Shown one piece after another: positions 13,783 through 52,356 of a stretch of 64,000 nucleotides of DNA. Position 1 is the stretch's first letter, and each line of letters starts with the position of its first letter. Under the pieces are notes generated by a model. The model worked only from the letters and a program-made list of their open reading frames with translations, was not told where the DNA came from and did not search any database. Location of the stretch: the NCBI GenBank assembly GCA_028279365.1, contig JANQNX010000011.1, positions 16,118-80,117 on the forward strand, given 5' to 3'. A program made the position numbers and the translations under genes. This DNA is from Gammaproteobacteria bacterium. GTDB lineage: Bacteria > Pseudomonadota > Gammaproteobacteria > Eutrophobiales > Eutrophobiaceae.

Positions 13783-14686
13783 TGGATAAAATCTTCATAA
13801 ATAATTCTTCCAGTCGGTTTGACTTGTTTCGCATGCTGCATACCTGGATATCTTCAGACGATAATAAGTTGAACAGGGTATTGATATCCTGCTCACGGGC
13901 AATCTCAACTTCAACTGTTTGCTCATCTATCAGGTAAGCGTTAAAGCCATTAAGTATAGGTAAACTAGAAAGAGGTTTTACTAAATCAAGCACAAATGTC
14001 TCTTGATTGAGTTTAGCGAGTAATTTTTTGATTGATGTGTTTTCGATAATCGACCCCTTGTCTATTATCGCAATGTTTTTACACAGTGACTCGGCTTCTT
14101 CCAGGTAGTGTGTGGTTAATACTATGGTAATACCCGATTGATTAATTTCTGTCAGAAACGTCCACATTGATCGACGTAGTTCAACGTCCACGCCAGCAGT
14201 CGGTTCGTCGAGAATTAACATTCGTGGTTCGTGGATGAGTGCCCGAGCAATCATTAACCTTCGCTTCATCCCACCGGACAAATCTCTGGAACGTTCATGG
14301 CGTTTTTCCCACAAGCCGAGTTGGGTTAGATATTTCTCAGCACGCTGCATCGCCAGCTTACGGGTAATGCCGTAGTAGCCGCCCTGGTTGACCACAATCT
14401 CAAGACAGGTTTCAAACTGGGAGAAGTTGATTTCCTGCGGGACAATGCCGATGGCTGCTTTTGCTGCCCGTGTTTCGCTATCGATATTGTGCCCAAATAT
14501 GTTGACTGTACCGGATGTTTTATTGACCAGCCCACAGAGAATGCCAATGATGGTCGATTTACCGGCGCCGTTCGGTCCCAGTAGCGCAAAAAAATCACCT
14601 TCTTCAACGGCAAGATCGACATCACGTAGCGCAACCAGTTTATTGCGATAGGTTTTGTTTAATTGTTTAATTTCCAGCGCTGACAT
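13775..14686 (-). CDS. ABC transporter ATP-binding protein (YadG-like)
   Basis: Walker A GPNGAGKST, signature LSGGMKRR and Walker B LILDEPT. Confidence 0.85.
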   Translation of the reverse strand: MSALEIKQLNKTYRNKLVALRDVDLAVEEGDFFALLGPNGAGKSTIIGILCGLVNKTSGTVNIFGHNIDSETRAAKAAIGIVPQEINFSQFETCLEIVVNQGGYYGITRKLAMQRAEKYLTQLGLWEKRHERSRDLSGGMKRRLMIARALIHEPRMLILDEPTAGVDVELRRSMWTFLTEINQSGITIVLTTHYLEEAESLCKNIAIIDKGSIIENTSIKKLLAKLNQETFVLDLVKPLSSLPILNGFNAYLIDEQTVEVEIAREQDINTLFNLLSSEDIQVCSMRNKSNRLEELFMKILSND

Positions 14687-14771
14687 GCGAAATCAAAAAA
14701 AGATTAACAGACATAAGAGTACTTGATGTACTTCATGATTAGAATAAAAAAGACGACAACAGCGCTCAGAT

Positions 14772-15632
14772 TCAGTGCTTGAGTTTAGCGCGCTCCTTAT
14801 TTTGCGCCTGACCTGCTTTTAACAGGGAAATAGCCAGCGAGCTATCCCGCTTTAAAGCCAGTTTAAAGTATTCCTTAGCGACTTTTATCAGACGTGTTTC
14901 ATCATCAGTACGAACATAGGCATTTCTGCCACCAGAGGATCCTGGCATTAAGGCCTGCTCACCAAAATAATCGCCGGGTTTGAGTTTTGCCAATATATTA
15001 ATCTTGCCATCATCATCCATAACAAACACTTCAACCATGCCGTCTAATACTATGTAGAGATGTTCACCCGGCTCGTTTTCCTTAATCACAAAATCACCCG
15101 GACCCACAGTCATGACTTCGGTCCAGTTGTGATAGTTGTTTAATTCCGGTTCGGTGAGTGATTCAAACAAACGCAATTCGCCCAGCAGTTTCCTGACTTC
15201 GGATTGTTCCGGGCTGAAGGCGGGTACAGTGACATCTTCTGATTCTTCCACACCGCCGATATTGAGTAATACGTGTTTTTTGTTGATACGGAACAGTTTG
15301 CTTGGATGCAACGCGCGAACACTGGCATTTCTTCTGCCGGTACCACCGGGTAGTAAGGACTGTTCACCAAAAAAGTCGCCCGGGCGTAGCGTGGCAATGG
15401 TAATTTCCCTGCCGCCAGAACCGCCACGAATCGAGACCTCAACCGTGCCTTCTAGGATTACATACATACATTCGCCAATTTCTTCTTCGCGAATAATGCG
15501 TTCTTTCATTTCGAACGCTTCATAACCATTGTCCGCTGAATTAATAATACTTTCTAATTCGGCCCGGTTTAGCGATGCAAAGATGGGTACTGCTGCCAAT
15601 AGCTCAGGTTTGATGATGTTCTCGTCGTTCAT
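14772..15632 (-). CDS. Protein with two tandem cyclic-nucleotide-binding (CAP effector) domains and no output domain
   Basis: Two repeats of the FGE..L......R.A.V.A phosphate-binding cassette (FGEQSLL...RRNASVRA and FGEQALM...GRNAYVRT). Confidence 0.75.
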   Translation of the reverse strand: MNDENIIKPELLAAVPIFASLNRAELESIINSADNGYEAFEMKERIIREEEIGECMYVILEGTVEVSIRGGSGGREITIATLRPGDFFGEQSLLPGGTGRRNASVRALHPSKLFRINKKHVLLNIGGVEESEDVTVPAFSPEQSEVRKLLGELRLFESLTEPELNNYHNWTEVMTVGPGDFVIKENEPGEHLYIVLDGMVEVFVMDDDGKINILAKLKPGDYFGEQALMPGSSGGRNAYVRTDDETRLIKVAKEYFKLALKRDSSLAISLLKAGQAQNKERAKLKH

Positions 15633-15776
15633 TGTTAATCTAATCTTTTGCAGTGAATATAGGAAAATCTCGTTATTAAATCCTGATTATAGAGATATTT
15701 TGCAAATGACATCACATGCTGCTGCCAAAATTTGTTAAACAATAACGTTTTTTTACCATTTTTACCGAAACCGGGC

Positions 15777-16169
15777 TTATTTCTGTTCTTCGTTATCATC
15801 GTTCTGTTCTTCAGCCGTTTTACTCGCGGTTTTTTTGCTGGTTTTTTTCTTGCTGATTTTCTTTGTTGCAGATTTAGTCTGCGTTTTTGCTTTCTGTGGC
15901 CACGGGCTAAATGGAAAAGGCCGCTCTTCTGATTTGAACGTAATATAGAGAAGTATTTGCGAGACGTATTGGGTCAGTGAATCGCTGAATTCGAGCAATT
16001 GATCGTTCAGCTCAGTGGTGATTAATTTCATCAAAAACTGGAATATGACCACCAGCCAGATCAGAAAAAACAGGAAGTAAAAGATGACGGCATAGATCAG
16101 TATGAATAAACCCCGGGTCCAGACATCTACGTTTTTGGCGTTTTCTTTAATATCCATGCATTCCTCCAC
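15777..16169 (-). CDS. Small two-TM membrane protein, DUF4389-like, with a Lys/Ser/Thr-rich then acidic C-terminal tail
   Basis: Core WTRGLFIL...IFQFLMKLITTE...ERPFPFSPWP resembles my recollection of DUF4389. Tail is KAKTQTKSATKKISKKKTSKKTASKTAEEQNDDNEEQK. Confidence 0.5.
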   Translation of the reverse strand: MEECMDIKENAKNVDVWTRGLFILIYAVIFYFLFFLIWLVVIFQFLMKLITTELNDQLLEFSDSLTQYVSQILLYITFKSEERPFPFSPWPQKAKTQTKSATKKISKKKTSKKTASKTAEEQNDDNEEQK

Positions 16170-16229
16170 AAGAACTTGCCTGATTGATCGAATTGTAACT
16201 CTTCTAATATGTAGGCAAACCCAGAAAAA

Positions 16230-17165
16230 TCAATCCAGTTCAGTTAAAAAGTAGCTTTTATCAATACAATTATGCAGTGAAGCGAGCTGCGCTTGAAGCA
16301 GATCGATATGGTCATGGAAACCGGATTTAGCCAGTTTCCCAATATCTGTATTGGTATTCAGGCGCTGCAAGCTGGCGATTTCACGCAAAGGTTCATCATT
16401 GTTCGGTAATTCTTCCAGGCATTTTTTCACTTCGTTAATACAGTGTGAGAATGATCGAGGAAACTCCTCGCACTGTAACAAAAATTTCAATACTAACGCG
16501 CCTTTAACGCGGGTTTTGCTGTATTGCCGATACATCTGATAAGCGGTGAGCGATTTTAATACGCTAACCCATTGAATATTGCCAAACGGGGTTAATTCAT
16601 TTTCAAGTTCGGCGATCAGGTTAGCGGAGCGCACATCGATAATCCGTGTGGTCATGTCCGCACGTTCCAGATTACGTCCCAGTCTTAGAAAACAATAACC
16701 TTCATCCTGGCTCATGGTGCCGGCGAGTAGGCCGGTGATTCGGTGTACATCGCCGATGATTGAATTTAAAAAAGCATTGCGCCCGCGTTTACCTAAGGCA
16801 GTGGACATATTATTTTTAATTTTCTGATATAGATCGTTCAATAATTCCCACGATTCTCTGGGGATGATATCGCGGGTTGTACGCACATTTTCTCTGGCGC
16901 GACTAATACACGATAGTATCGAACTGGCATTGTTGGTATCAGCGATAATGAAGCGAATGACGTTTTTCTCATCCGGTTCGTCGTAGTGATCATAAAACAC
17001 ATCATCACCACCGGTGATGGAGATCGTTGATTGCCAGCCAAATGGGATCTTAACCGGTAAATCCATTAACAGGTTTTCATTCACGTTAACGATTCGAGCC
17101 ATGTTCTCAGCCCGCTCCAGGTGCCGTGACATCCAATAAAGTTCTTCTGCTACGCGCGATAGCAT
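16230..17165 (-). CDS. Alpha-E domain protein (DUF403 family)
   Basis: N-terminus MLSRVAEELYWMSRHLERAENMARI is typical of alpha-E proteins. There is a 2-nt gap to the upstream ATP-grasp gene. Confidence 0.75.
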   Translation of the reverse strand: MLSRVAEELYWMSRHLERAENMARIVNVNENLLMDLPVKIPFGWQSTISITGGDDVFYDHYDEPDEKNVIRFIIADTNNASSILSCISRARENVRTTRDIIPRESWELLNDLYQKIKNNMSTALGKRGRNAFLNSIIGDVHRITGLLAGTMSQDEGYCFLRLGRNLERADMTTRIIDVRSANLIAELENELTPFGNIQWVSVLKSLTAYQMYRQYSKTRVKGALVLKFLLQCEEFPRSFSHCINEVKKCLEELPNNDEPLREIASLQRLNTNTDIGKLAKSGFHDHIDLLQAQLASLHNCIDKSYFLTELD

Positions 17166-17167: not shown

Positions 17168-18619
17168 TTATTTACCACTCATATCTACGATCCAGGTATC
17201 TTTACTGCCGCCTCCCTGAGACGAGTTGACCACGATTGAGTTCTTCTTTAATGCCACCCTGGTCAATCCACCCATAGTGACATGAGTTTGTTGACCGGAC
17301 AGGATAAATGGTCTTAAGTCCAGGTGGCGCGGTTCGAGTTTGTCACCGATCAAGGTTGGCGCGGTAGAAAGATTAATCATCGGTTGTGCAACGTATTCGC
17401 GTGGGTTCTTTTTGATCATACGCGCCATTGCCGCCCGTTCTTTCTTGGTCGATTTAGGCCCGATTAACATACCGTAGCCGCCTGCTTCATTAGCCGGTTT
17501 GACCACCAATTTATCCAGGTTTTTCAGCACGTGATCGAGATCGTTTTCCCGATAGCAAAGATAAGTCGGTACGTTATTTAGTATTGAATCTTGGTCAAGA
17601 TAATATTTAATAATCTCAGGGACAAATGCATACAGCACTTTATCATCAGCGACACCGCAGCCAGGTGCATTAGCAAGGGTCACATTGCCTTTTTTCCAGG
17701 CGCGCATTAAGCCTTTCACGCCTAGGGTAGAGTCTTTGTAGAACACTTCAGGGTCGAGAAACATATCGTCAATACGACGATAGACCACATCGACTTTTTC
17801 CAAGCCATCAATGGTACGCATATAAACACAATCATCGTCACCGACAAGCAAATCCCGTCCTTCGACCAGTTCAACACCCATTTGTTGAGCAAGATAGGCA
17901 TGTTCAAAATACGCGGAATTGTAAACACCCGGTGTCAGTACCACGACTTCAGGATATTCTTCAGGTTGTGGAGAGACTGATGCTAATGTGTCAAAAAGTT
18001 GCGAGGGATAGTCATCTACTGGTTGGATTCGATACATCTCAAACAGGTCGGGAAATATGCGCTTGGATACCAGTCTGTTTTCCAACATGTAAGACACGCC
18101 AGAAGGGACTCTGAGATTGTCCTCTAAGACATAATATTTCCCATCTTTATCGCGAATGACATCACTACCGCAGATATGTGCCCAGATTCCCAGAGGCGGT
18201 TTGACTCCAATAGACTGTTTGCGAAAGTTTTTTGAACCCTCGATTAAAAAGCGGGGGACAACTTTGTCTTTCAGAATTCGTTGCTCACTATACAGGTCGC
18301 TGATGAACATATTGAGTGCATCAACGCGCTGTTTTAAGCCGGCCTGCAGAGTTTCCCATTCTTTCATGTTGATGATTCTGGGAATAATATCGAATGGCCA
18401 AATAGTCTCAACGCGACCCTGCTCATTGTATACCGTGTAGGTTACCCCCATCACGGTAATGGCCAGATCAGAGGCGGCCTTTCTTTCTTGCAAATCAGCT
18501 GTTGACAATGATTTGAGATATTTACTTAACTGTCGTGCATGAGCACGAGGCACACCTGCCTGCGTGATTAGTTCATCGTAGCAATCGTCATTTCCGTATT
18601 CTTTCCAGTTAATTGTCAT
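17168..18619 (-). CDS. Circularly permuted ATP-grasp superfamily protein (type 2, DUF404/DUF407)
   Basis: 483 aa. Size and pairing with an alpha-E gene match the family predicted to make or modify peptides. The call rests on context plus overall sequence character. Confidence 0.75.
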   Translation of the reverse strand: MTINWKEYGNDDCYDELITQAGVPRAHARQLSKYLKSLSTADLQERKAASDLAITVMGVTYTVYNEQGRVETIWPFDIIPRIINMKEWETLQAGLKQRVDALNMFISDLYSEQRILKDKVVPRFLIEGSKNFRKQSIGVKPPLGIWAHICGSDVIRDKDGKYYVLEDNLRVPSGVSYMLENRLVSKRIFPDLFEMYRIQPVDDYPSQLFDTLASVSPQPEEYPEVVVLTPGVYNSAYFEHAYLAQQMGVELVEGRDLLVGDDDCVYMRTIDGLEKVDVVYRRIDDMFLDPEVFYKDSTLGVKGLMRAWKKGNVTLANAPGCGVADDKVLYAFVPEIIKYYLDQDSILNNVPTYLCYRENDLDHVLKNLDKLVVKPANEAGGYGMLIGPKSTKKERAAMARMIKKNPREYVAQPMINLSTAPTLIGDKLEPRHLDLRPFILSGQQTHVTMGGLTRVALKKNSIVVNSSQGGGSKDTWIVDMSGK

Positions 18620-20764: not shown

Positions 20765-21535
20765 ATGAGTGCTTCTCTGGTCGGAATTATCAAAGCGTTA
20801 ATATTGCCACCAGGCATATTACTAGTACTTTTCTTTCTGTGTATTTGCCTATACCTCAAGAGAAATAAACTGTTTAGCTATTTCTTCATTTCAAATTGTT
20901 TACTGTTTTACCTTTTTTCTATGCCAGCATTTAGCCATTATTTATCATCGTTATTTGAACCTGATAAAGCCTTAACTACAGATAATATTGAAAAAGAGGC
21001 TGGAGCGATTGTTATACTGGGCTGTGGACGTTATGCGAATGCCCCCGAGTATGGTGATCAAGATACACTATCTTCGTGTGGTTTGGTTAGGCTTCGATTT
21101 GCTTCATTGCTTCAATCCAAAATGGATTTGCCAATCTTTGTCTCGGGAGGAAGTGTCCACGGAGAAGCAGTATCAGAAGCTGAACTTATGCAAAATGTAT
21201 TAGTTAACGAATGGGGAGCTGAAAACGTATTGCTGGAAAAAGCTAGCGTTAATACTATCGAGAATGCCGATTACACTTCTGCTTTCTTAAAAAAACAAAA
21301 TATCAACACAATACTTCTTGTGACCCATGCCATTCATATTAAAAGGGCAAAATATTTATTTGAAAGAAGTGGGCTGAAAGTAATTCCTGCCCCGACGTAT
21401 TTTTATTCTGTCCCAGATAGCAAAAAATATTTTTTTAATTTCATACCGTCAATGAGCGCTTTAAATATTACTACTACGGTTTTTTATGAAATGCTTGGTT
21501 ATTTATGGGTGAGGATTAAAACCTATGAATTCTAA
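20765..21535 (+). CDS. DUF218 (YdcF/ElyC/SanA-like) membrane-anchored protein
   Basis: N-terminal TM helices followed by AIVILGCG...VSGG...NTIENA...LLVTHAIHIKRA, typical of DUF218. Confidence 0.7.
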   Translation: MSASLVGIIKALILPPGILLVLFFLCICLYLKRNKLFSYFFISNCLLFYLFSMPAFSHYLSSLFEPDKALTTDNIEKEAGAIVILGCGRYANAPEYGDQDTLSSCGLVRLRFASLLQSKMDLPIFVSGGSVHGEAVSEAELMQNVLVNEWGAENVLLEKASVNTIENADYTSAFLKKQNINTILLVTHAIHIKRAKYLFERSGLKVIPAPTYFYSVPDSKKYFFNFIPSMSALNITTTVFYEMLGYLWVRIKTYEF

Positions 21536-22400
21536 AGGAATTCAATATGTATGTATAAACTGTGAAAATACATTGAAATCTTTGGAAGAAGAATGGTTGT
21601 GGCATTGTCAAAGTTGCGGTCTGGATGTGTCGTTATTAGATAATGAAAAATACAATGGTAAAGACGTGATAGGTTGGACAGAAAGTGCCAGCCTTTTTTT
21701 GAAGGAGCTACGAGAAAATAACGCCTGTAAGTTACTTGATTTGTTATCTCAATATACAGATTTAAAAGGGAAAAAACTGTTGGATATAGGTTGTGCTGCC
21801 GGTTGGTTTTTGTCAGTTGCTGAAAAATATCAATTAATTGCGATAGGCATAGAACCGGACACTGGTATTGCGCAAAAGGGCCTTGATAAAGGACTTGATA
21901 TCAAAACAGCGATATTTCCTGACGAAAGCATTATCGATAGTAAATTTGATATCGTTACCTTTAATGACGTATTCGAACATATTAAAGAACCTTTTACTAT
22001 TTTGTCTGATGTGCATCAGCAACTAAATGAAGATGGTTATTTAATAATAAATTTGCCTACGTCTGATGGCTTTATATATAGACTCTCCAGGTTCTTGTCT
22101 AAGCTATGTTACAAACCGCTATTTCATAGGCTGTGGCAAAAAGGTTATGTTAGTCCGCATCTTTACTACTATTCAAATACCAATCTCAAATCATTAGTAG
22201 AAAAGTGTGGATTTAAACTTGTTGCCAAAGATCATCTTGATATTTTACAAATAAAGAATCTTTATCAGAGAATAAATCATGAGGGAAAGATTAATAGAAT
22301 CGTATCAAGCACGCTTTATTTTTCTATTATCTTGGTATATCCGTTGTATAAATATGTGTTACCTCCAGATATTATGGTTCATATATACAGAAAAGATTAA
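21525..22400 (+). CDS. Class I SAM-dependent methyltransferase with N-terminal CxxC...CxxC zinc ribbon
   Basis: CINC...CQSC at the N-terminus. Motif I is LLDIGCAAGWF. Confidence 0.7.
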   Translation: MNSKGIQYVCINCENTLKSLEEEWLWHCQSCGLDVSLLDNEKYNGKDVIGWTESASLFLKELRENNACKLLDLLSQYTDLKGKKLLDIGCAAGWFLSVAEKYQLIAIGIEPDTGIAQKGLDKGLDIKTAIFPDESIIDSKFDIVTFNDVFEHIKEPFTILSDVHQQLNEDGYLIINLPTSDGFIYRLSRFLSKLCYKPLFHRLWQKGYVSPHLYYYSNTNLKSLVEKCGFKLVAKDHLDILQIKNLYQRINHEGKINRIVSSTLYFSIILVYPLYKYVLPPDIMVHIYRKD

Positions 22401-22418
22401 TCAATCTAATTAGCTATT

Positions 22419-23369
22419 ATGTTTTTACCCGCAGATTGTCCAGAATGGGATAATGTCGTCGCTTCGGCATATTCATTAAAAAAACAGACTATTGAGTATG
22501 ATGGCGTAAGTTTTAAGCTATTTTCGATTAAAAAAAAACCAGCCTTTTATACTAATGCGCCTTATTTGGACTCAGGTGGATTAACTTTTGATGATGATCA
22601 ATTGCCAGAAGAATTATCACAACAGCTTTATAAGTTGATCGAAAAACATCATTTAAAGTATGTGCTTTTGAAATCTTATCAAAAATTAAATCTTAACTAT
22701 CCTGGGTACTATTGTATAGATGAAGGTTATTGCACTTTCGTTCTTGATACCAAAAGCGGAATTGATGATATATGGAAAAAAAAGTTAAAAGCAAAAACGA
22801 GAAACCAAATCAGAAAAGCTGAAAAGTATGGTTTCAATGTAAGAATTGGATATACAGAGTTATTGGACGACTTCTATCGGGTAATATCTCGTTGTTGGCG
22901 TGATCTTGGTACACCTTCCCACAGCTTTGATTTTTACAGCATTATTCTCGAAGAATTCTCAAACAAAGCCATGATTATTGTCCTGTATGATAAAGAAATA
23001 CCCGTATCTACATCTATGATTTTTAATATTGATGGTGTAGTTTCTAATCCATTTGCGGGCACTTTAAATCAATATAAACCCACATCTGTAAATAACTTAC
23101 TGTATTGGACTATTATAAAACTGGCTTGTGATAGTAGTGCATCATATTTTGATATGGGCAGAAGCCGTATCAATCAGGGGACATATAATTTTAAAAAATC
23201 CTGGGGTGGAGATATTAACAGCCTTTACTATCATTATTTTTTTCATAAAAAACAAAGTGTGCCTTCTTACGATACGCGATTCCTGAGAATGGCGACTTCT
23301 ATGTGGAAATTAATGCCTTTAACTTTGGCAAAGTTATTTGGTCCATATCTAATTTATAGAGTTCTATAA
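22419..23369 (+). CDS. FemAB-like (tandem GNAT fold) putative aminoacyl-tRNA-dependent transferase
   Basis: 316 aa. Length and sequence character resemble the FemAB-related proteins that pair with DUF3473-type deacetylases in polysaccharide loci. Not verified by search. Confidence 0.55.
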   Translation: MFLPADCPEWDNVVASAYSLKKQTIEYDGVSFKLFSIKKKPAFYTNAPYLDSGGLTFDDDQLPEELSQQLYKLIEKHHLKYVLLKSYQKLNLNYPGYYCIDEGYCTFVLDTKSGIDDIWKKKLKAKTRNQIRKAEKYGFNVRIGYTELLDDFYRVISRCWRDLGTPSHSFDFYSIILEEFSNKAMIIVLYDKEIPVSTSMIFNIDGVVSNPFAGTLNQYKPTSVNNLLYWTIIKLACDSSASYFDMGRSRINQGTYNFKKSWGGDINSLYYHYFFHKKQSVPSYDTRFLRMATSMWKLMPLTLAKLFGPYLIYRVL

Positions 23370-23380
23370 AATAAACTGTA

Positions 23381-24526
23381 ATGGACAAGAATAGAAAAGT
23401 CGTTATTTCTGGTGCGGGTATTGCGGGTCTGACCACTGCTATATGGCTAGCAAGGCATGGCTTTAAACCTGTTGTTATTGAAAAGTCACCACAAATCAGG
23501 GCTTATGGGTATATCGTGTCTCTTTCGCATAAGTCTTATCATTTCGCCCGAGAGCTAGGTATCTTGAAAAAACTATGTGACAGAGGGGCAGGTATTAAAG
23601 CTTCCTGTTATTACCATAAAAATGGTCGTCCTATGTTGTCATTGGATTACCAACGACTATTTCAAGGGCTAGATATCGTGCAGATCATGCGGGATGAACT
23701 TGAGATGATATTGTATGAAGAGGCAAAAAATTTGTGTGAGTTTAGGTTCAATAATAGCTTAATGGGAATCAGTCAAGATAACGATGAAATTGAGTTCTCA
23801 CTAAAAGATGGCACAAAAGATACCTGTGACGTATTGATAGGAGCGGATGGGCTTCACTCAATTACCCGAACTCTGGCTTTTCCTGAGTCTGCAGTAGAAA
23901 AAAACTACCTTGGCATATTTTCCAGTGCTTATCGCCTAAAAAATATTCTGGGTATCAAAGACAGGTTTGAAAATCACATGGAAAAAGATCGTTACATGTG
24001 CGTTTATACGACAGGAGAAGGAGACTTGGCATGTGTATTCATATGGAAATCGGAAAATAATTATGCACCTGCACAAGAGTCAAGGTTAGACGTACTTAAG
24101 CAGGCTTACCAAGGGTGTCCAAATACTGTTCAAGCGGTAATAGAACATTGCCCTGTTGAGGAGCCAATCTATATGGACCCTTTGATACAAATCAAAATGC
24201 AATCCTGGACTAAAGGAAATGTTGTCTTGTTGGGTGATGCCGCCCATTGTTTAACGTTGTTGTCAGGACAAGGTGCATCGACTGCGTTTTGGGGGGCCAG
24301 TATTCTAGCTAAATCATTAATCAATGATCCTGTTGATATCGCATTTAAAAATTATCACAGGGAAATAATGCCCGTAACAGCAAAGATACAGCCATCGACG
24401 ATGAATGCAGCTAAATGGTATATACCAGGCAGTAATTTTAATTATCTTGCTCGAGATCTTGCTATGACATATCTGCCCAATGCATTTTTCCAGGCTTATT
24501 TCAGGAAAAAGTACTCCAATGCCTGA
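23381..24526 (+). CDS. FAD-dependent monooxygenase (UbiH/salicylate hydroxylase class)
   Basis: Rossmann motif VISGAGIAGL, DG fingerprint GADGLHS, and LLGDAAH. Confidence 0.8.
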   Translation: MDKNRKVVISGAGIAGLTTAIWLARHGFKPVVIEKSPQIRAYGYIVSLSHKSYHFARELGILKKLCDRGAGIKASCYYHKNGRPMLSLDYQRLFQGLDIVQIMRDELEMILYEEAKNLCEFRFNNSLMGISQDNDEIEFSLKDGTKDTCDVLIGADGLHSITRTLAFPESAVEKNYLGIFSSAYRLKNILGIKDRFENHMEKDRYMCVYTTGEGDLACVFIWKSENNYAPAQESRLDVLKQAYQGCPNTVQAVIEHCPVEEPIYMDPLIQIKMQSWTKGNVVLLGDAAHCLTLLSGQGASTAFWGASILAKSLINDPVDIAFKNYHREIMPVTAKIQPSTMNAAKWYIPGSNFNYLARDLAMTYLPNAFFQAYFRKKYSNA

Positions 24527-24546
24527 TCTGGATAATATCTATTCCA

Positions 24547-25410
24547 ATGATTACATTTACTCTTGATCTGGAAGATCACCGAAAAAACAATAACGATAAA
24601 AAGCGCTATCCTAAAATAACGCATGAGATACTATCTTTACTGGAAAGCCTGGAGATTAAAGGAACATTTTTTGTCGTTGGCAAAATAGTTAAGGAAAGCC
24701 CGGAATTAATAAAAGCCATAGCAGATAATGGTCATGAGTTGGCTTTTCATTCTTATGCACATAAACAGTTGCAATATGAAACTTGCGAAGGATTTAAAGA
24801 AGAAACCAGCTATGGAAAGTCCCTACTTGAAGATGTCACAGGACAAGAAGTGATCGGTTTCAGAGCACCTGTTTTTTCATTGATTGAAACAACATTATGG
24901 GTGACAGATGTGCTAAAAGAATTGGGCTTTTTATATTCCTCAAGTGTGATGCCGGCTAAAAACCCTCTGAATGGCTTTTGTAATGCTCCCGATATTCCAT
25001 TTGTCTGGCCCAATGGCCTAATAGAAATTCCTGTTCCAGTTTCGAAATTGGGACCAATAACCATCCCTTACCTTGGCGGTGTCTATTTGCGATATTTGCC
25101 GAGGTTTTTAGTAAAACAAATGATTGAAAAGAGTGGTTCAAAGCATCTTTGGACTTACTGTCACCCGTATGATTTTGATCATACAGAGCCTTTCACAAGG
25201 ATTGAAGGAGCATCATTACTGACAAGCGTCATACTATGGTTTAACAGGAAACACATGCAACAAAAACTAGAGTATTTATTAACTTTAAAAAAAGGAAGTA
25301 ATGAACCACTTACTTTTTCAGAACAATTTTATCAAGGCTGGTTTGATCAAGTTCCTGAATTTAATTTTTCTAAGGATTTTCAAGAATTAAAAAATAAGAA
25401 GCACCAATAA
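24547..25410 (+). CDS. Polysaccharide deacetylase family protein (CE4 with DUF3473-like C-terminus)
   Basis: FTLDLED (DxED-type motif 1) and HSYAH (motif 2). About 285 aa. Confidence 0.72.
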   Translation: MITFTLDLEDHRKNNNDKKRYPKITHEILSLLESLEIKGTFFVVGKIVKESPELIKAIADNGHELAFHSYAHKQLQYETCEGFKEETSYGKSLLEDVTGQEVIGFRAPVFSLIETTLWVTDVLKELGFLYSSSVMPAKNPLNGFCNAPDIPFVWPNGLIEIPVPVSKLGPITIPYLGGVYLRYLPRFLVKQMIEKSGSKHLWTYCHPYDFDHTEPFTRIEGASLLTSVILWFNRKHMQQKLEYLLTLKKGSNEPLTFSEQFYQGWFDQVPEFNFSKDFQELKNKKHQ

Positions 25411-26089
25411 GTTTAGATAGTATGCTATCAGTTTTGGTAGATTCCCAGTTTGCTATGGGTAGAATAGCCTTGCCAGTGATAGTTTTGAAACCTATAGCAT
25501 TAGCAGTAAGTTTCACAAGTGAAATTGGGTGGTTAACTATCGGAAAAATTTCTTTTCTAAAAATTAAATCATAAGAATGGAAAAGTGCATGAGATATTTT
25601 ATGTATCAACGCATCTCCATTACGCCATACAAGGATTAATCGACCTTTTTTCTTCAGCACTCTGTAAGATTCTGCTAAAAGTTGTTGTATATCTTCATGT
25701 GATTGTTGATTTAAAAACTGACAACAAACCAGGCGGTCAATTGAATTATCGATTATTGGAAGGTTAAAAGCATCTGATCTAATTGTAGTTAGTGAATTCG
25801 CGAAAGCAAGTTTACAAGCCAGCACATTGTAATCTAAACCTATTAATAAAGATGCCTGATTTATTAGAGGTTTTAGCATCATTCCCGAGCCGCAGCCAAT
25901 ATCCATAATGATTTTAGAATCAATATCAGATAAGGCGGATAGCACAACTTCTTGTTCTTTAAGAAAATAGGTATGAAATCGATAACCATTGGCCCTGGCA
26001 TCAGAATATTTTTTCTGAGTGTTATGGTATAGCTGATTGACTGATCTGCTTGCGCGATTTTTCATAAATAGATGAAACTGTATATACAA
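25370..26089 (-). CDS. Class I SAM-dependent methyltransferase
   Basis: Motif I is IMDIGCGSGMM. The 3-prime end overlaps the convergent deacetylase gene by 41 nt. Confidence 0.7.
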   Translation of the reverse strand: MYIQFHLFMKNRASRSVNQLYHNTQKKYSDARANGYRFHTYFLKEQEVVLSALSDIDSKIIMDIGCGSGMMLKPLINQASLLIGLDYNVLACKLAFANSLTTIRSDAFNLPIIDNSIDRLVCCQFLNQQSHEDIQQLLAESYRVLKKKGRLILVWRNGDALIHKISHALFHSYDLIFRKEIFPIVNHPISLVKLTANAIGFKTITGKAILPIANWESTKTDSILSKLIGASYFLILENP

Positions 26090-27029
26090 GAAACAAAAAT
26101 AGAAAAGGGATAAATATTAAAACCAATCGTGTTAATATACTTGCACTAGCTGCAAAAGCCGAAGGTAATCCGAAGAATAAAAAAATTCCCATTAACCCTG
26201 CTTCACCTATTCCTATTCCACCGATGGTTTGTAAAGGTATTAAAGCTAATGCATTATAGGCTATTGCTGAAAGAATAAGTTGAATACTCGTAAGTTGAGT
26301 ATCGAATGAGAAGAAAAGTAAACTTAATCCGCCAATGTTACAGAGCCATTTGAGAAAAGAAATACCTACTCCACGGAAGAAAATATCGCTATTTATATGA
26401 AATCTGTAATACAAACGAGCCTGTAATAATACTCTAAATAATTTTCTTACTATGCTTTTAGGGCGTCGTCTATGCCTGTAAAAAGTCGAAGCGATAAAGC
26501 CCAATATTAAATCAATTCTATATAGACCAATAAAGGTAAAAAAAAGTATAAGCACAATACTAAGAATTAGTAATTCCAAAGAAAAAAGATGATTTAAACA
26601 CAAGAAAATCAACGTCATACTTGCTAAAAATAATAAATCGATATAGCGCTGTATTATTGTATTCATGATAGCTGCACCAGCGCTTTGTTTTAAATAGTCC
26701 TGTAATAAAAAAACGACAGCAATTTCACCAAGTCTTGCGGGTAAGATGACTAGTGAAACGATGAACCAGGAACTTAATTTTGAACATCTACCTATTGAGT
26801 GGTTGCCTGGCGTGAAAGTTTTGAAACGAAGTCCTGTAAAGAAGCCTTCTAAAGCTAATACTATTATAGATAAAAAGAGCCATTTAAAAGATGTTAAATC
26901 AATTAAATTAGCTAGTTCATGAATATTAGTTTGATTGAAAATAAACAACAGCAAACCAATGCTAATAACAAAGCTTATTACCCATATGTATAGATTGCTT
27001 TTTTTTATGGTTTCAGAGAGAAACTTCAC
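26022..27029 (-). CDS. Polytopic membrane protein, LPG-synthase-TM / UPF0104 (flippase-like) family
   Basis: 335 aa with about 8 TM helices and an Arg-rich central loop (YRHRRRPKSIVRKLFR). Resembles standalone MprF-TM-region proteins that accompany GT2 genes. Called from recollection. Confidence 0.55.
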   Translation of the reverse strand: MKFLSETIKKSNLYIWVISFVISIGLLLFIFNQTNIHELANLIDLTSFKWLFLSIIVLALEGFFTGLRFKTFTPGNHSIGRCSKLSSWFIVSLVILPARLGEIAVVFLLQDYLKQSAGAAIMNTIIQRYIDLLFLASMTLIFLCLNHLFSLELLILSIVLILFFTFIGLYRIDLILGFIASTFYRHRRRPKSIVRKLFRVLLQARLYYRFHINSDIFFRGVGISFLKWLCNIGGLSLLFFSFDTQLTSIQLILSAIAYNALALIPLQTIGGIGIGEAGLMGIFLFFGLPSAFAASASILTRLVLIFIPFLFLFLVYTVSSIYEKSRKQISQSAIP

Positions 27030-28387
27030 GAGCTTGGTTTTTTTATGAGTCCGAGTTTTATTTTTGAAAAACTAATGATAGAGCACAGTATATATGCGAT
27101 AGAGATAGAATAAATAGGAGTGAGGGTCAGATTATATCTAGCAATGTTTAAAGAAAAGAATGCATGAAAAAAAACCATATACCATGCTGGCAGTGATATA
27201 AGTAATAAATGATTTCTTTGTTTTTTATCTAGTTTCACAAGCAAAATTATAAAACATATAAAACCTAACACGCCCCAATATTTGGCAATAAACATCCCTC
27301 TCCATGCCAATACTAATGTAACGGCGTTATGTTTAGTAATATCTCCGATAATTTCGTTTTTAATCAAATAACGTATTCTTTCATCTGTGCTCCTTATATT
27401 TAAATGAGTTGGTATAACATCTCTTGATTTTGAGTAATAAGAGTTTTCATCGAAGGAAAGTTTTTCATACAATTTTTTTGAAAAAATTTTCTTGGCAATG
27501 TTGTCTCCTGAATCAGGAAACCAATAAATGAAGCCTACAGCCCATTCTTTCCATGACATGTCATTATAAGAAACACGAGTGGCAAGGACCCTGTCGCCAT
27601 ACCCACTTGATAAAGCCATATCATCAAAGTGCAGGTAATTCCTTATCATCCATGGGCCTATGAAGGTCAAGTAGACCAGTATTACAATAATGAAGTTTTT
27701 AGCCTTAGTGTAATTTGGCTTGATCAACAAAAAAGAAAAGAAAATAGCAGCAATAATTGGATATAAATAATTATAACTGGGTTTGGTTAATATCAACAGA
27801 CTTAGGAATGATATAGCTAAAATTAGCCATCGAGTTTTTTTCTCAAAAATAAATTTTACTAACATTAAGCTAAATAAACTGAATAAACACATAATTAACG
27901 ATTCTGTCAGAACTAAATTAGCAAAATGCATGATTCTGCCCATGAATAAAGCAATAAAGAAAGAGACCCATGCAATTCCTCGAGATTTAAATAACTCAAA
28001 AGCAATTAGCCATATACTCCAAAAAGTCAAGATAGCTAATAAAACTTGAAACCATACTAAACGTGTTAAATCTATTGAACATAAAGTAGTATTTTTTTTA
28101 TTTTTTAGTAGGCATAAGAAATCTTTGGCAAGGTTTCTATCTAATTTTAATATAAGGGATAAATAAGCTGGATACAGAGGTGTAACCACATTGCTGGGAG
28201 TATAGTCGGTACGTGAGTTACCAAAAGTCTGATATTGATCAAGGCCTAAACTATAATCAATATACCAGTATGCATCAGATTCAGGAGTTGTAATAGCAGG
28301 TTCATAAATGAACTTTTGAAGAAAAATAACAATAATCGTTGAGACAAGTACAAACAAAAGAAAGGACTTGTTCAATTCTTTTTTCAT
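27026..28387 (-). CDS. GT-C fold glycosyltransferase (ArnT/PMT, GT39/GT83-like)
   Basis: 453 aa with more than 10 TM helices. An acidic first-loop motif (PESDAYWYIDY) follows TM1, as in ArnT/PMT enzymes. Confidence 0.65.
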   Translation of the reverse strand: MKKELNKSFLLFVLVSTIIVIFLQKFIYEPAITTPESDAYWYIDYSLGLDQYQTFGNSRTDYTPSNVVTPLYPAYLSLILKLDRNLAKDFLCLLKNKKNTTLCSIDLTRLVWFQVLLAILTFWSIWLIAFELFKSRGIAWVSFFIALFMGRIMHFANLVLTESLIMCLFSLFSLMLVKFIFEKKTRWLILAISFLSLLILTKPSYNYLYPIIAAIFFSFLLIKPNYTKAKNFIIVILVYLTFIGPWMIRNYLHFDDMALSSGYGDRVLATRVSYNDMSWKEWAVGFIYWFPDSGDNIAKKIFSKKLYEKLSFDENSYYSKSRDVIPTHLNIRSTDERIRYLIKNEIIGDITKHNAVTLVLAWRGMFIAKYWGVLGFICFIILLVKLDKKQRNHLLLISLPAWYMVFFHAFFSLNIARYNLTLTPIYSISIAYILCSIISFSKIKLGLIKKPSS

Positions 28388-28401
28388 GAATAAATTATTT
28401 T

Positions 28402-28809
28402 TTATGCTTCATTAATATTAAAAGAATTGATGATTTGCCAATTCTGGCTGATACTTTTTTTGAAAGTGGAAAAATTTTTTTCCCAACCAACACATTGTTT
28501 ATAACACAAAAATTCAACGCTACACTCTTGCCAATCTGAGTAGCAATTAACAAAAATCTCAAGATTGGTTTTGCCTTTAAGGTGTACAACTAGCTTGTAC
28601 TCAGGGCTTTCGGTGGTTCCATATTTATAGCTTGAGTCCGTAAAAATCATTCTCTCCTCTAATGCGAGTTCTTCCAAATAAAGTTTAAGATCTGAGAAGC
28701 CAGGATAAGAGATATTGAAGTTAATAGCTGCTTTTAAAAATTTATTTTGCGGATTACACGCACTCATAATGAACAGCAAAAATATCAAGCTTACCCTTTT
28801 GATATACAT
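28402..28809 (-). CDS. Small lipoprotein, unknown function
   Basis: Signal peptide with lipobox FIMSAC. Four further Cys residues. No recognisable family. Confidence 0.5.
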   Translation of the reverse strand: MYIKRVSLIFLLFIMSACNPQNKFLKAAINFNISYPGFSDLKLYLEELALEERMIFTDSSYKYGTTESPEYKLVVHLKGKTNLEIFVNCYSDWQECSVEFLCYKQCVGWEKNFSTFKKSISQNWQIINSFNINEA

Positions 28810-28827
28810 TGTTTTTACGAATTAATT

Positions 28828-29799
28828 TTAGATATCATCTAACAATACTTGTAATGGGGTGCTTGGTTTATTATCAATATCAAAGCTTAATGCAGATAAT
28901 GATAATTGCAGGCCTATGATGGTGGGTAACGCTGCATTCATTACCTGTCCAGCCGTCGCATGTAAGCCTGTTGTCACACTCAGCGTCCATTTTTCTATTC
29001 CGAAATTAACACCGTAAATAAGTAATATTGGGCCGATTATTAACTCTATTGAAGCGAGATGAAAATCACGTAAAAAATAATTATAAAAAATTCGTTTAAC
29101 AAAGTTTATAAAGTGTTTTATTGAAAACTCGATTAAACATCTAAAAACAGAAAGGCTGCTTTCTTCATTTTCATACCTTGATTCCATCGGTATATCGATG
29201 ACTAATGCTCGTAACGTATTTAATCGGAAAAGCATATCAGATTCAAAAAAGTAGCCTTTGCTGATTTTTTCTAACGGCACCATTTTTAAAACGTTGGCAT
29301 GTATCGCTGTATAACCATTATTTGGGTCAAATATTCGCCAATATCCTGTAGAAAACTTACTCATGAATGAAAGCACTGCATTTCCTAATAGGCGGATTTT
29401 TGGCATAGCAGATAAGTTTTCTAAACTAAAGAAGCGATTACCTTTTGTATAGTCTGCTTTTTTATTGAAAATTGGATCAACAAAGCGTGAGATAATAGCC
29501 GGATTCATTTGGCCGTCAGCATCTATTTTTACAATGCATGTGTTTTTATCAGCTAACGCAGCTTTATAGCCTGTTAACATTGCGCCACCAACTCCGGTGT
29601 TGTTTTCATGCCTGATAACTTTTACGCGACTATCAGAGATATTTTCTTGTATATGTTCCCCCGTTTTTTCTGGACAAGCATCATCAATGCAGTAAATGCT
29701 GGATACCATAGGAGGGATAGCTTTTATGACTTCTAGCACATGTTTTTTTGCTTTATAACAAGGTATCACTACAGCAATAGAAAAATCTGAATATTCCAT
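28828..29799 (-). CDS. GT2 glycosyltransferase with C-terminal TM helices (polyprenyl-phosphate sugar synthase type, ArnC/GtrB/DPM1-like)
   Basis: VVIPCYKAKK N-terminus, DAD (DxD) motif, and two hydrophobic helices at the C-terminus. Confidence 0.82.
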   Translation of the reverse strand: MEYSDFSIAVVIPCYKAKKHVLEVIKAIPPMVSSIYCIDDACPEKTGEHIQENISDSRVKVIRHENNTGVGGAMLTGYKAALADKNTCIVKIDADGQMNPAIISRFVDPIFNKKADYTKGNRFFSLENLSAMPKIRLLGNAVLSFMSKFSTGYWRIFDPNNGYTAIHANVLKMVPLEKISKGYFFESDMLFRLNTLRALVIDIPMESRYENEESSLSVFRCLIEFSIKHFINFVKRIFYNYFLRDFHLASIELIIGPILLIYGVNFGIEKWTLSVTTGLHATAGQVMNAALPTIIGLQLSLSALSFDIDNKPSTPLQVLLDDI

Positions 29800-44432: not shown

Positions 44433-44524
44433 GGAGAGGTGGCCGAGCGGCTGAAGGCGCTCCCCTGCTAAGGGAGTATACGGTTTATCCCGTATCGAGG
44501 GTTCGAATCCCTCTCTCTCCGCCA
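44433..44524 (+). tRNA. tRNA-Ser (anticodon GCT), class II with long variable arm, CCA encoded
   Basis: Folded by hand: acceptor GGAGAGG/TCTCTCC, anticodon arm CTCCC-CTGCTAA-GGGAG, long variable arm, T arm GAGGG-TTCGAAT-CCCTC, discriminator G, then CCA. Confidence 0.95.
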
Positions 44525-44533
44525 ATAAATAAC

Positions 44534-44557
44534 AAACCCCGAAACGCGGGGTTTTTA
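44534..44557 (+). terminator. Rho-independent terminator after tRNA-Ser
   Basis: AAACCCCG...CGGGGTTTTT hairpin followed by a T-run. Confidence 0.7.
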
Positions 44558-44576
44558 TTTATTTGGAAGCAGAGGC

Positions 44577-44602
44577 TTGATGAGAACCCTTTGGTTCGAC
44601 AA
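44577..44602 (+). repeat. Direct repeat copy 1 (TTGATGAGAACCCTTTGGTTCGACAA)
   Basis: Matches 44754-44779 (TTGATGAGAGCACCTTGGTTCGACAA) apart from a few substitutions in the centre. Confidence 0.75.
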
Positions 44603-44677
44603 TCTTCCGTAGGAAGATTGGACAGACGAACGGAGAGAGTCTGCCCCGAAGGGGTGAGTAAATGCCACAAGCATTTA

Positions 44678-44702
44678 CGAATCAATCCCTCTCTCTCCGC
44701 CA
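44678..44702 (+). repeat. Copy of the tRNA-Ser 3-prime end (CGAATCAATCCCTCTCTCTCCGCCA)
   Basis: Identical to tRNA-Ser 44504-44524 except for a 4-nt insertion (AATC). Ends in GCCA. Confidence 0.85.
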
Positions 44703-44711
44703 TAACAAAAT

Positions 44712-44733
44712 AACCGGCTTTTGCCGGTTTTTT
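44712..44733 (+). terminator. Rho-independent terminator directly after the tRNA-end copy
   Basis: AACCGGC-TTTT-GCCGGTT followed by a T-run. Confidence 0.65.
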
Positions 44734-44753
44734 ATTGTGTGGAGTTTGAGAAT

Positions 44754-44779
44754 TTGATGAGAGCACCTTGGTTCGACAA
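44754..44779 (+). repeat. Direct repeat copy 2 (TTGATGAGAGCACCTTGGTTCGACAA)
   Basis: See 44577-44602. The two copies start 177 nt apart. Confidence 0.75.
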
Positions 44780-44893
44780 ATCGGCAGAACGCCTACATGG
44801 ATGTAGGTGATAGAGCGAAGCAGGAGCCAGAGCCGAACAGCCGATTTGCACATTGCCTTAGCAATGCCTAAAAGGCAAACTGCAAGAATATAG

Positions 44894-44910
44894 CGAATGA
44901 GTCCCTCTCT
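44894..44910 (+). repeat. Second, more degenerate copy of the tRNA-Ser T-loop/acceptor end (CGAATGAGTCCCTCTCT)
   Basis: Shares CGAAT..TCCCTCTCT with 44504-44520 but has lost the CCGCCA end. Confidence 0.5.
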
Positions 44911-44953
44911 GTTGATATCCCAAAATGTAACTAAACTCCTTTAGGGTTTTGTG

Positions 44954-45811: not shown

Positions 45812-45964
45812 GTCTAATCCGAGTTTGATTAACTACAATGCAGTTGATTTTATAAATCAATAACTTATAAGTAAATTGAATTAATTATGTTTATAATAAT
45901 AGTGAAATAGCTGAGTGATTTGACTAAATGGCTCAGTCCTATAATATTCCCGGCTCAAAACAAC

Positions 45965-46041
45965 GCGCCCGTAGCTCAGCTGGATAGAGTACCTGGCTAC
46001 GAACTAGGGGGTCGGAGGTTCGAATCCTTCCGGGCGCGCCA
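45965..46041 (+). tRNA. tRNA-Arg (anticodon ACG), CCA encoded
   Basis: Acceptor GCGCCCG/CGGGCGC, D arm AGCTCAGCTGGATAGAGT, anticodon loop CTACGAA, T arm GGAGG-TTCGAAT-CCTTC. Confidence 0.95.
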
Positions 46042-46067
46042 TTTATAAGGCTTTCAAATCATTTTAA

Positions 46068-47498: not shown

Positions 47499-47537
47499 GG
47501 TTATTCTCCTAATAAGTTTTGTTTAAAATTAAAAAAT

Positions 47538-48487: not shown

Positions 48488-48518
48488 TAGGGCATAAAGG
48501 CACGCCATTTTTTATACT

Positions 48519-50467: not shown

Positions 50468-50480
50468 ATATTCTTGTGCA

Positions 50481-52341: not shown

Positions 52342-52356
52342 TAATTATTACACTAC

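Follow-up and report, generated by a model that had tools for sequence, protein, structure and literature searches.

A variable gene cassette between lipA and an M23 peptidase gene of a marine gammaproteobacterium: a putative periplasmic glycosylation system with aminoacyl tailoring of a lipid-linked amino sugar

The genomic window analyzed here is a stretch of 64,000 nt of contig JANQNX010000011.1 (assembly GCA_028279365.1; Gammaproteobacteria bacterium), which belongs to an uncultured marine gammaproteobacterium; all coordinates refer to this window. Between positions 20765 and 29799, it carries a cassette of ten open reading frames (ORFs) arranged in two convergent operons, five genes on the plus strand (20765-25410) and five on the minus strand (25370-29799), which share a 41-nt overlap at their 3' ends. 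This layout agrees in all its coordinates with an initial annotation that had been made from the sequence alone. The flanks are ybeD-lipB-lipA on the left and the genes for an M23 peptidase, xseA, and guaB on the right. Only 18 nt separate the lipA stop codon from the ATG of the first cassette gene, and only 23 nt lie between the ATG of the last one and the stop codon of the M23 gene, so that the two halves of the cassette seem to prolong the convergent housekeeping operons on either side.

Pfam and NCBIfam searches upheld every domain call of the initial annotation, and the motifs it had listed (DAD, PESDAYWYIDY, DLED, and HSYAH) were all found in the expected proteins. The plus-strand operon starts with a DUF218/ElyC-like inner-membrane protein of 256 aa with one N-terminal transmembrane (TM) segment (20765-21535; DUF218, 1.5e-25), which reached 67.8 bits on the NCBIfam ElyC model, below its cutoff of 205. 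It is followed by an S-adenosylmethionine (SAM)-dependent methyltransferase of the Methyltransf_23 family (21525-22400; 3.1e-21) whose N terminus holds a Zn-ribbon of the form CxxC...CxxC (CINC at residue 10, CQSC at residue 28), and by a FemAB-like double-GNAT transferase of 316 aa (22419-23369; FemAB [PF02388], 54.3 bits against a cutoff of 24, E value of 1.3e-14; also Acetyltransf_6), for which the best NCBIfam model was TIGR03019 (171.7 bits, below the equivalog cutoff of 260.35). The fourth gene encodes a class A flavin adenine dinucleotide (FAD)-dependent monooxygenase of 381 aa (23381-24526; FAD_binding_3 [PF01494], 1.2e-24, residues 6 to 314) and the fifth a CE4 deacetylase of 287 aa with a C-terminal DUF3473 domain (24547-25410; Polysacc_deac_1, 3.8e-20; DUF3473, 1.3e-26). 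The deacetylase has DLED at residue 7 and HSYAH at residue 68, reached 188.2 bits on TIGR03006 (equivalog cutoff, 276.2), and matched generic CE4 enzymes in the PDB. Neither the deacetylase nor any of the other tailoring enzymes has a signal peptide or a TM segment, and they are therefore cytoplasmic.

On the minus strand, reading from the convergence point, a second SAM methyltransferase (Methyltransf_11, here MT11) of 239 aa (25370-26089; 8.6e-15) is followed by a membrane protein of 335 aa (26022-27029) resembling a stand-alone MprF flippase domain. This protein, referred to here as LPG_TM, matched LPG_synthase_TM (PF03706; 2.7e-25, 89.9 bits against a cutoff of 33.4) over model positions 1 to 300 of 302 and the TIGR00374 flippase-like domain with 61.9 bits. 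It has about 8 to 10 hydrophobic segments and consists of the TM domain only, without a fused C-terminal aminoacyl-phosphatidylglycerol synthase domain. Next come a glycosyltransferase of the GT-C(A) fold with 453 aa (27026-28387), a small putative lipoprotein of 135 aa (28402-28809) with a lipobox-like MSAC at residue 15 and no Pfam or NCBIfam family, and a GT2 polyprenyl-phosphate glycosyltransferase of 323 aa (28828-29799; Glycos_transf_2, 1.7e-16). The GT2 enzyme has its DAD motif at residue 93 and a C-terminal TM segment at 246 to 264; its sole match among PDB sequences was the dolichyl-phosphate mannose synthase 5mlz (1.6e-12), and its best NCBIfam models were AglJ (58.6 bits) and the polyprenyl-phosphate N-acetylgalactosamine synthase PpgS (48.9 bits), both below cutoff. 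The GT2 protein is predicted to make a lipid-linked N-acetylhexosamine (HexNAc) donor.

The interval differs clearly in composition from its surroundings. The initial annotation had relied on spot G+C counts of single 60-nt lines, of which the two cassette values (14/60 and 20/60) and that of alaS (37/60) were exact, while the mreB line contains 36 and not 37 G+C. Averages confirm that the drop extends over the whole interval (0.343 in the cassette versus 0.447 in the flanks), and it is also visible at third codon positions (0.25 to 0.36 in cassette genes versus 0.37 to 0.42 in lipB, lipA, the M23 gene, xseA, and guaB). The initial annotation had found no integrase or flanking repeat, and this holds: no integrase or recombinase is encoded among the ten cassette genes or in the flanks, only short chance matches, none of them significant, were found as repeats at the cassette boundaries, no tRNA gene lies within 14 kb of the cassette, and tRNA and Rfam scans were empty at the boundaries. 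Promoter and terminator signals there did not exceed the shuffled expectation, and the promoter scan is uninformative on operon structure.

Since the GT-C protein had only a borderline family match (PMT_2, 26.7 bits against a cutoff of 26.1) and its profile matched no PDB sequence, a fold search with an AF2 model (pLDDT of 90.6) was used for its assignment. Foldseek neighbors were PglB (7.8e-5), STT3, ArnT (4e-3), Pmt, DPY19, ALG3/12, and EmbC, all of them GT-C(A) enzymes that use donors linked to a lipid phosphate, and no polymerase or ligase appeared among them. TM-scores were between 0.41 and 0.50 across all GT-C(A) families, and ArnT was not preferred. The protein has about 11 to 13 TM segments and no large periplasmic domain. 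Catalytic Asp residues of GT-C enzymes are usually located after TM1 (PMC11127046), and in the window protein the motif PESDAYWYIDY at residue 35 includes Asp38, which directly follows TM1 and is at least 90% conserved; the motifs WFPDxGD and HAF..RYN are conserved as well. The family might have been taken for a rare one, because a first search returned 19 homologues, but this was an effect of the word-index filter, and an exhaustive scan with a hidden Markov model (HMM) found 581 clusters at an E value of ≤1e-30 and 2486 at ≤1e-10. Judging from fold and conserved residues, the GT-C protein is predicted to transfer a modified sugar onto a periplasmic or membrane acceptor.

The FemAB-like protein was treated in the same way, with a family profile and a fold search, as its single sequence, like that of LPG_TM, had no match in the PDB. 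The only significant matches of the family profile were aminoacyl-tRNA-dependent enzymes, and the best fold matches of the AF2 model (pLDDT of 95.6) were double-GNAT enzymes of this kind. The closest were Sbb17/Sba18 with bound streptothrisamine (E value of 5e-14, TMq of 0.61), followed by FemX, FemA, and the MprF synthase domain (E value of about 2e-10 and TMq of 0.54 to 0.57). Orf11, an enzyme of the same group, moves Gly from Gly-tRNA to an amine of the amino-sugar intermediate streptothrisamine (PMC12945691). An invariant FKKSWG (K259) of the window protein aligns with FKKVWG of Staphylococcus aureus FemX; the alignment to Weissella viridescens FemX ends before Lys305, the residue of its conserved C-terminal Lys motif, to which the window motif may correspond. 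Together, profile and model suggest an aminoacyl-tRNA-dependent enzyme that would N-aminoacylate a deacetylated, lipid-linked amino sugar. The deacetylation itself is assigned to the CE4/DUF3473 enzyme, whose predicted substrate is HexNAc linked to polyprenyl phosphate. For the FAD monooxygenase, the closest solved relatives are Tet(50) (7.9e-50) and 6-hydroxynicotinate 3-monooxygenase (NicC; 3e-47), and its predicted role is the oxygenation of the newly attached acyl or aminoacyl group. Its gene is one of the most highly conserved in the set (59 to 75% identity where GT-C shows 31 to 62%). With 186.6 bits on the NCBIfam tetracycline-destructase model, which has a cutoff of 550, it is not a tetracycline destructase by this measure, although a lenient screen for resistance genes might wrongly label it tet(X)-like.

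To evaluate which of these genes are inherited together, relatives of the GT-C protein were sought in metagenomes and in 62 species-representative genomes, and the window proteins were scored against all ORFs there. The co-occurrence set consisted of 41 nonredundant, species-level loci in which the GT-C relative is flanked by 7 kb or more on each side. Hosts of the relatives included metagenome-assembled genomes of Gammaproteobacteria as well as Micavibrio, Rhodospirillales, Kiloniella, Aestuariispira, Hwanghaeella, Marivibrio, and Roseomonas. MT11 and the FemAB-like, CE4/DUF3473, and FAD monooxygenase genes followed an all-or-none pattern, being present together in 16 of the 41 loci and jointly absent from 25. 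LPG_TM accompanies them in 15 of the 16 and a detectable GT2 gene in 12. In most loci, MT11 and FemAB share an operon directly downstream from GT2-GT-C-LPG_TM, and MT11, which adjoins the FemAB-like gene in most cases, is found in all 16 complete loci. Gene order and strand vary between lineages of Alpha- and Gammaproteobacteria, and so does the insertion site: lipA|M23 in the clade of the window, carbamoyltransferase|gltX-ccm in Thiotrichaceae UBA4486-type loci, Zn-dependent alcohol dehydrogenase (Zn-ADH)|luciferase-like-LamB in a high-GC gammaproteobacterial clade, and DeoR|LysR in Hwanghaeella sp. 1Z406 (NZ_JBLZHU010000005.1). In this cultured strain, the module is a compact set of seven genes (L057, 9782-17092) placed between unrelated regulators, and other polysaccharide genes are absent. 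Coinheritance in spite of rearranged order and site is strong evidence of a shared function. The initial annotation had counted the tailoring genes as part of the pathway without a characterized counterpart; the all-or-none pattern bears this out, and we found no such counterpart in the literature.

Not every gene of the interval belongs to this invariant core, and the original ten-gene extent has to be reduced. The DUF218 gene is also found between lipA and M23 in genomes that lack the cassette (L072 to L074, with 35 to 39% identity, versus 46 to 51% in genomes with the same cassette type); it is thus a resident of the lipA|M23 site, and the mobile unit comprises the nine genes at 21525-29799. 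Its presence at empty sites led us to reject DUF218 as firm cargo, but it also accompanies the module away from lipA (L004, L038, and L062), and we consider its membership ambiguous. Peptidoglycan and enterobacterial common antigen (ECA) pathways both use undecaprenyl-phosphate-linked intermediates. ElyC and SanA, from the same family as the DUF218 protein, act in envelope biogenesis at the inner membrane and have been connected with the synthesis of peptidoglycan and ECA (PMC3879167, PMC8609368, and PMC12176290). The 135-aa lipoprotein has orthologues only in L001 and L068 (42% identity) and is absent from L003, L069, and all other variants; it is specific to the subclade of the window and possibly an accessory of this GT-C subtype. 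Of the two methyl tailoring enzymes proposed at first, MT11 is tied to the tailoring core, while the Zn-ribbon Methyltransf_23 is a variable accessory outside it. True orthologues of the latter (>100 bits) occur only in L001, L068, L069, L025, L027, and the GNAT-variant loci described below, and other variants have an unrelated 220-aa methyltransferase instead.

The lipA-M23 interval was also sampled independently of the cassette, starting from M23 homologues, and all four genomes obtained in this way had an empty site. In L072 to L074, lipA is followed by DUF218 and M23 only, and in the more distant L075, lipA abuts M23. In their flanks, L072 to L074 are no less related to the window than other genomes (lipA, 70 to 74%; M23, 68 to 70%; guaB, 88%). 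In other equally related genomes, the same site holds the same type of cassette (L001 and L068), a rearranged and far more divergent type (L003 and L007; FemAB at 24% and GT-C at 44 to 45% identity), a third arrangement (L024 and L071), or a form in which GT-C has been swapped (L069). Comparison of the lipA-xseA interval in relatives thus shows that the cassette does not occupy this position in all of them. Across lineages, its G+C content tracks that of the host genome, from 0.32 to 0.72, and it falls below the flanks in the low-GC gammaproteobacterial clade, most strongly in the window. A recent island insertion was considered and rejected: L068 and L001 differ from the window as much in the cassette (42 to 75% identity) as in the flanks (59 to 74%, with guaB at 89%), and the cassette is not a recent arrival in that subclade. 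Of the horizontal acquisition proposed by the initial annotation, what stands is an accessory, exchanged locus, as seen in the empty sites, the alternative cassettes, and the G+C deficit, but not a recent island. A variable surface-structure locus, with alleles exchanged between conserved flanks as at O-antigen loci, fits better than a mobile-element island.

Variant loci indicate how the system is assembled. Relatives without tailoring are plain three-component systems, as in Kiloniella antarctica, where a 113-aa EamA/SMR-like protein, GT2, and GT-C are encoded in a row. A small EamA/SMR-like (ArnE/F-like) gene abuts GT2 or GT-C in 20 loci, and LPG_TM is also present in just one of them (L048); the two are mutually exclusive in the other 19, which means that the flippase type changes with the tailoring. 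In some Rhodospirillaceae (L033, 8777-11356; also L046), an 859-aa ORF contains the GT-C relative as its C-terminal half and precedes the small EamA-like gene. Three independent combinations were found that pair a deacetylase with an N-acyltransferase beside GT2 and a periplasmic transferase. In addition to the CE4 and FemAB-like pair of the window module, CE4 is combined with a 373-aa GNAT protein, along with LPG_TM and Methyltransf_23, in L031, L050, L051, and L052; the same GNAT gene lies beside a partial GT-C on a 2.2-kb contig (L044). The third combination is found in Chryseobacterium sp. Leaf394 (L070, 6905-11514), where GT2, GT_STM0557_N (GtrC-type), a YdjC deacetylase, a FemAB-like protein (40% identical to that of the window), and a GNAT are encoded in a row inside a large polysaccharide locus. 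YdjC is the family of Francisella NaxD. This locus is an independent, partly nonhomologous version of the same logic in a cultured strain of Bacteroidota.

The replacement of FemAB by GNAT can be followed at a single site. In the high-GC clade, L025, L027, and L061 carry the full FemAB/FAD monooxygenase module, and L031, L051, and L052 have the CE4, 373-aa GNAT, and Methyltransf_23 variant. A luciferase-like monooxygenase in L051 was considered as a substitute for the FAD monooxygenase and rejected, because this gene, LamB, and Zn-ADH are 77 to 97% identical across both cassette types and are hence flanking core genes of the clade; the GNAT-for-FemAB replacement stands. The transferase can be changed too. 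In L069, at the lipA|M23 site, the cassette is orthologous except that the place of the 453-aa GT-C is taken by an unrelated 584-aa PMT_2 protein (14734-16488, opposite strand), as expected if the donor-building genes and an acceptor-specific transferase are separable modules, which suggests that the acceptor-specific transferase can be swapped. An extra gene of 266 to 268 aa is located between GT-C and LPG_TM in cassettes of the Thiotrichaceae UBA4486 type (L004, 11404-12210) and of the L071 type (14549-15349); the L004 product has a faint Sulfotransfer_3 match and could represent another tailoring step.

On the whole, we consider it slightly more likely than not that the cassette is an elaborated three-component periplasmic glycosylation system, in which an amino sugar on a lipid carrier is aminoacylated and tailored further before it is exported. 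The data establish the families and folds, the cytoplasmic location of the tailoring enzymes, their strict coinheritance, the switch of flippase type with tailoring, and the accessory, exchangeable character of the locus. Together, they point to the following steps, of which the order, the substrates, the sugar and the amino acid, the action of the monooxygenase, and the acceptor are inferred. GT2 (28828-29799) would transfer HexNAc from a housekeeping UDP-sugar to undecaprenyl phosphate, most simply from UDP-GlcNAc, as genes for making nucleotide sugars are absent from the cassette. The cytoplasmic CE4/DUF3473 enzyme would then strip the N-acetyl group, and the FemAB-like enzyme would load an amino acid from aminoacyl-tRNA onto the freed amine. 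This group might be modified further by the class A FAD monooxygenase and MT11 and, in the subclade of the window, by the Zn-ribbon Methyltransf_23 as well. LPG_TM, of the MprF type, is the predicted flippase that would bring the bulky aminoacylated lipid-linked sugar to the periplasmic face, where GT-C would transfer the modified sugar to an envelope acceptor. As GT-C lacks a large periplasmic domain, this acceptor is probably a glycolipid embedded in the membrane, for example, lipid A-core or a lipid-linked glycan.

A three-component periplasmic glycosylation system consists of a polyprenyl-phosphate sugar synthase (GT2), a flippase, and a GT-C transferase (PMC11127046). The window shares this linkage with GtrA/GtrB/GtrC of Salmonella and Shigella, the Klebsiella and Citrobacter variants, and CsbB/GtcA/YfhO of Firmicutes, and it has the corresponding features, i.e., a GT2 with a DXD-type motif and C-terminal anchor and a GT-C fold with Asp after TM1. 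However, the dedicated small flippase of those systems (GtrA, SMR/EamA, or MATE) is absent from the cassette, which has an LPG_synthase_TM protein instead; four to five cytoplasmic enzymes are added that would remodel the lipid-linked sugar before flipping; and its GT-C family has neither a characterized member nor a PDB sequence match.

The succession of GT2, deacylase, flipping, and GT-C is also the logic of ArnC/ArnD/ArnE/F/ArnT, Bordetella LgmABCD, and Francisella FlmF2/NaxD/FlmK. The Arn pathway handles 4-amino-4-deoxy-L-arabinose (L-Ara4N), and Bordetella LgmABCD adds glucosamine to lipid A. The Francisella system places galactosamine on lipid A (PMC2233673). The lipid-carrier glycosylation with amino-sugar deacylation proposed by the initial annotation fits the GT2 relative, the GT-C fold, and the cytoplasmic deacetylase; its likeness to Arn holds for the logic but not for orthology. 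BLASTP against Escherichia coli gave 27% identity over 108 aa for ArnC and 24% over 80 aa for ArnD, the hhalign probability for ArnT was 0.5%, there was no NCBIfam hit to ArnC or ArnT, and the ArnD model scored 19 bits against a cutoff of 382. No ArnA/ArnB-type genes are present, the ten proteins containing no dehydrogenase, formyltransferase, or aminotransferase domain. Unlike in Arn, Lgm, and Flm, where the amine is left free, that of the window is predicted to be reacylated with an amino acid and modified.

Other partial parallels exist. The mycobacterial PpgS (Rv3631)/Rv3779 pair, which decorates arabinogalactan with galactosamine, also uses a lipid-linked HexNAc and a GT-C, and the PpgS model is one of the two that the window GT2 matched best in NCBIfam, even if 48.9 bits fall far short of its equivalog cutoff of 370. 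The mycobacterial system lacks Fem-like, flavin, and methyl tailoring. Sbb17, Sba18, and Orf11 act on a soluble antibiotic intermediate in Streptomyces, whereas the window has a membrane-carrier module in Proteobacteria, with 15 to 17% identity. MprF likewise combines an LPG_synthase_TM domain with an aminoacyl-tRNA-dependent double-GNAT enzyme and flips an aminoacylated lipid; in the window, these functions are in separate genes, the Fem-like protein is closer to FemX, and the predicted lipid is a polyprenyl-phosphate sugar and not phosphatidylglycerol. Finally, the best curated families for the FemAB-like and CE4/DUF3473 proteins, TIGR03019 and TIGR03006, are paired in XrtA/PEP-CTERM systems too, although the window proteins score below both equivalog cutoffs; we found no biochemical characterization of that pair in the literature.

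Several observations weigh against the proposed tailoring pathway. In four Micavibrio-type loci (L015, L018, L019, and L021), the tailoring set, LPG_TM, and GT-C are present with no GT2 within 10 kb (phmmer, E value of <1e-5); their donor synthase may have diverged beyond detection or may be encoded at another place. The solved relatives of the FAD monooxygenase attack (hetero)aromatic rings, which the module does not obviously supply unless the amino acid is aromatic. LPG_TM had no match among PDB sequences, and we know of no stand-alone member of its family shown to flip a polyprenyl-linked sugar. DUF218, with its ambiguous membership, may be unrelated to the pathway. Lastly, the FemAB-like and CE4 proteins score best, even if below cutoff, on XrtA/PEP-CTERM families and could act on a polysaccharide repeat unit.

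This last point leads to an explanation that we regard as unlikely, namely, that two independent systems share the site, with the minus-strand operon adding an unmodified sugar and the plus-strand genes for CE4/DUF3473, the FemAB-like protein, the FAD monooxygenase, and methyltransferases modifying something else, e.g., an exopolysaccharide or an undecaprenyl-diphosphate-linked repeat unit made elsewhere, as presumed for the XrtA/PEP-CTERM-associated relatives. The top NCBIfam matches to XrtA-associated exopolysaccharide families, the many FemAB-like homologues labeled PEP-CTERM-associated, and the location of the two gene sets in separate convergent operons of the window would be accounted for. 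However, both equivalog cutoffs are missed, the four tailoring genes are all-or-none beside GT-C despite shuffled order, MT11 and FemAB mostly belong to the operon of GT2-GT-C-LPG_TM, the compact block of Hwanghaeella has no other polysaccharide genes, and the flippase type switches with tailoring. Among the module loci examined, no exopolysaccharide locus or exosortase was found beside the module.

Even less probable, in our estimation, is a split MprF-like system, in which the FemAB-like protein would aminoacylate phosphatidylglycerol or a GT2-made glycolipid for LPG_TM to flip, with GT-C and CE4 as a side function. LPG_synthase_TM is indeed the family of the MprF flippase domain, the FemAB-like model resembles MprF synthase domains, and the two genes are nearly always linked, but both sequence and fold place FemX and the enzymes that aminoacylate streptothrisamine nearer than MprF, the GNAT variant has LPG_TM without a Fem-like gene, the Chryseobacterium locus has a FemAB-like gene without LPG_TM, and the perfect co-occurrence of CE4 and FemAB is explained by an amine-generating step and not by aminoacylation of phosphatidylglycerol. 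An equally low probability applies to the same pathway with a periplasmic or membrane protein as the acceptor (O- or N-glycosylation) in place of lipopolysaccharide (LPS) or a glycolipid. The oligosaccharyltransferases PglB and STT3 head the GT-C fold neighbors, and protein O-mannosyltransferases (PMTs) also appear, yet the uniformly modest TM-scores, that of ArnT included, mean that the fold search does not discriminate the acceptor type. A large periplasmic domain carries the acceptor-peptide site in PglB and STT3, and PMTs have a MIR domain; the 453-aa GT-C, mostly TM, has neither, and the module has no linked gene for a candidate acceptor protein.

The remainder of the window contains other features. 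A circularly permuted ATP-grasp protein (CP_ATPgrasp_2, 1e-166; 17168-18619, minus strand) adjoins ybeD, and the cassette-free L072 has the same neighbor, followed by an Alpha-E domain gene. At 44433-46041, tRNA-Ser(GCT) and tRNA-Arg(ACG) bracket a DUF6671 gene (44954-45811, minus strand). A second low-GC stretch (0.32 to 0.39; 45965-57920) starts directly after tRNA-Arg(ACG) (45965-46041) and carries genes for an aldehyde dehydrogenase, a TetR regulator, a histidine kinase/response regulator pair, a LuxR-type response regulator, a pyrroloquinoline quinone (PQQ)-dependent dehydrogenase (54458-56356), a solute-binding protein, and cytochrome c. It looks like a PQQ-alcohol-dehydrogenase cluster and is possibly a tRNA-linked island. 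At 58435-63836, there is a Bat-like operon (MoxR AAA ATPase-DUF58-unknown-VWA-unknown-VWA) with a G+C content of 0.35 to 0.41. The low-GC region at 46 to 64 kb was considered as a locus for the acceptor glycan and rejected, as the PQQ-dehydrogenase cluster and the Bat-like operon are unrelated to it.

We found no description in the literature of this gene combination or of such an envelope decoration. Whether the elaborated three-component system makes a previously unknown envelope modification, i.e., a polyprenyl-phosphate amino sugar that is aminoacylated by a tRNA-dependent enzyme of the Fem type, oxygenated and methylated in the cytoplasm, and exported by a stand-alone MprF-type flippase, is a more tentative claim, to which we assign a little under an even chance. 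If it holds, LPS or another glycoconjugate of the envelope would bear a new chemical decoration, exchanged by marine Alpha- and Gammaproteobacteria as an allelic cassette, like O-antigen loci. To our knowledge, the substrates of tRNA-dependent aminoacylation have so far comprised phosphatidylglycerol, peptidoglycan precursors, and some antibiotics, and sugars linked to a lipid carrier would be added to them. The widespread stand-alone UPF0104/LPG_synthase_TM proteins, common but uncharacterized, would receive a first assigned and testable substrate class. A modular rule would also follow, by which the GT2/flippase/GT-C core stays constant while a set of deacetylase (CE4 or YdjC) and acyltransferase (Fem-type or GNAT) is plugged in and the type of flippase changes along with it. 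The hypothesis is directly testable in cultured carriers, Hwanghaeella sp. 1Z406 with the compact seven-gene form and Chryseobacterium sp. Leaf394 with the analogous one. For the cells that carry the cassette, the properties of the envelope would be affected, as decorations of this kind usually alter surface charge, susceptibility to phages and antimicrobial peptides, and antigenicity.

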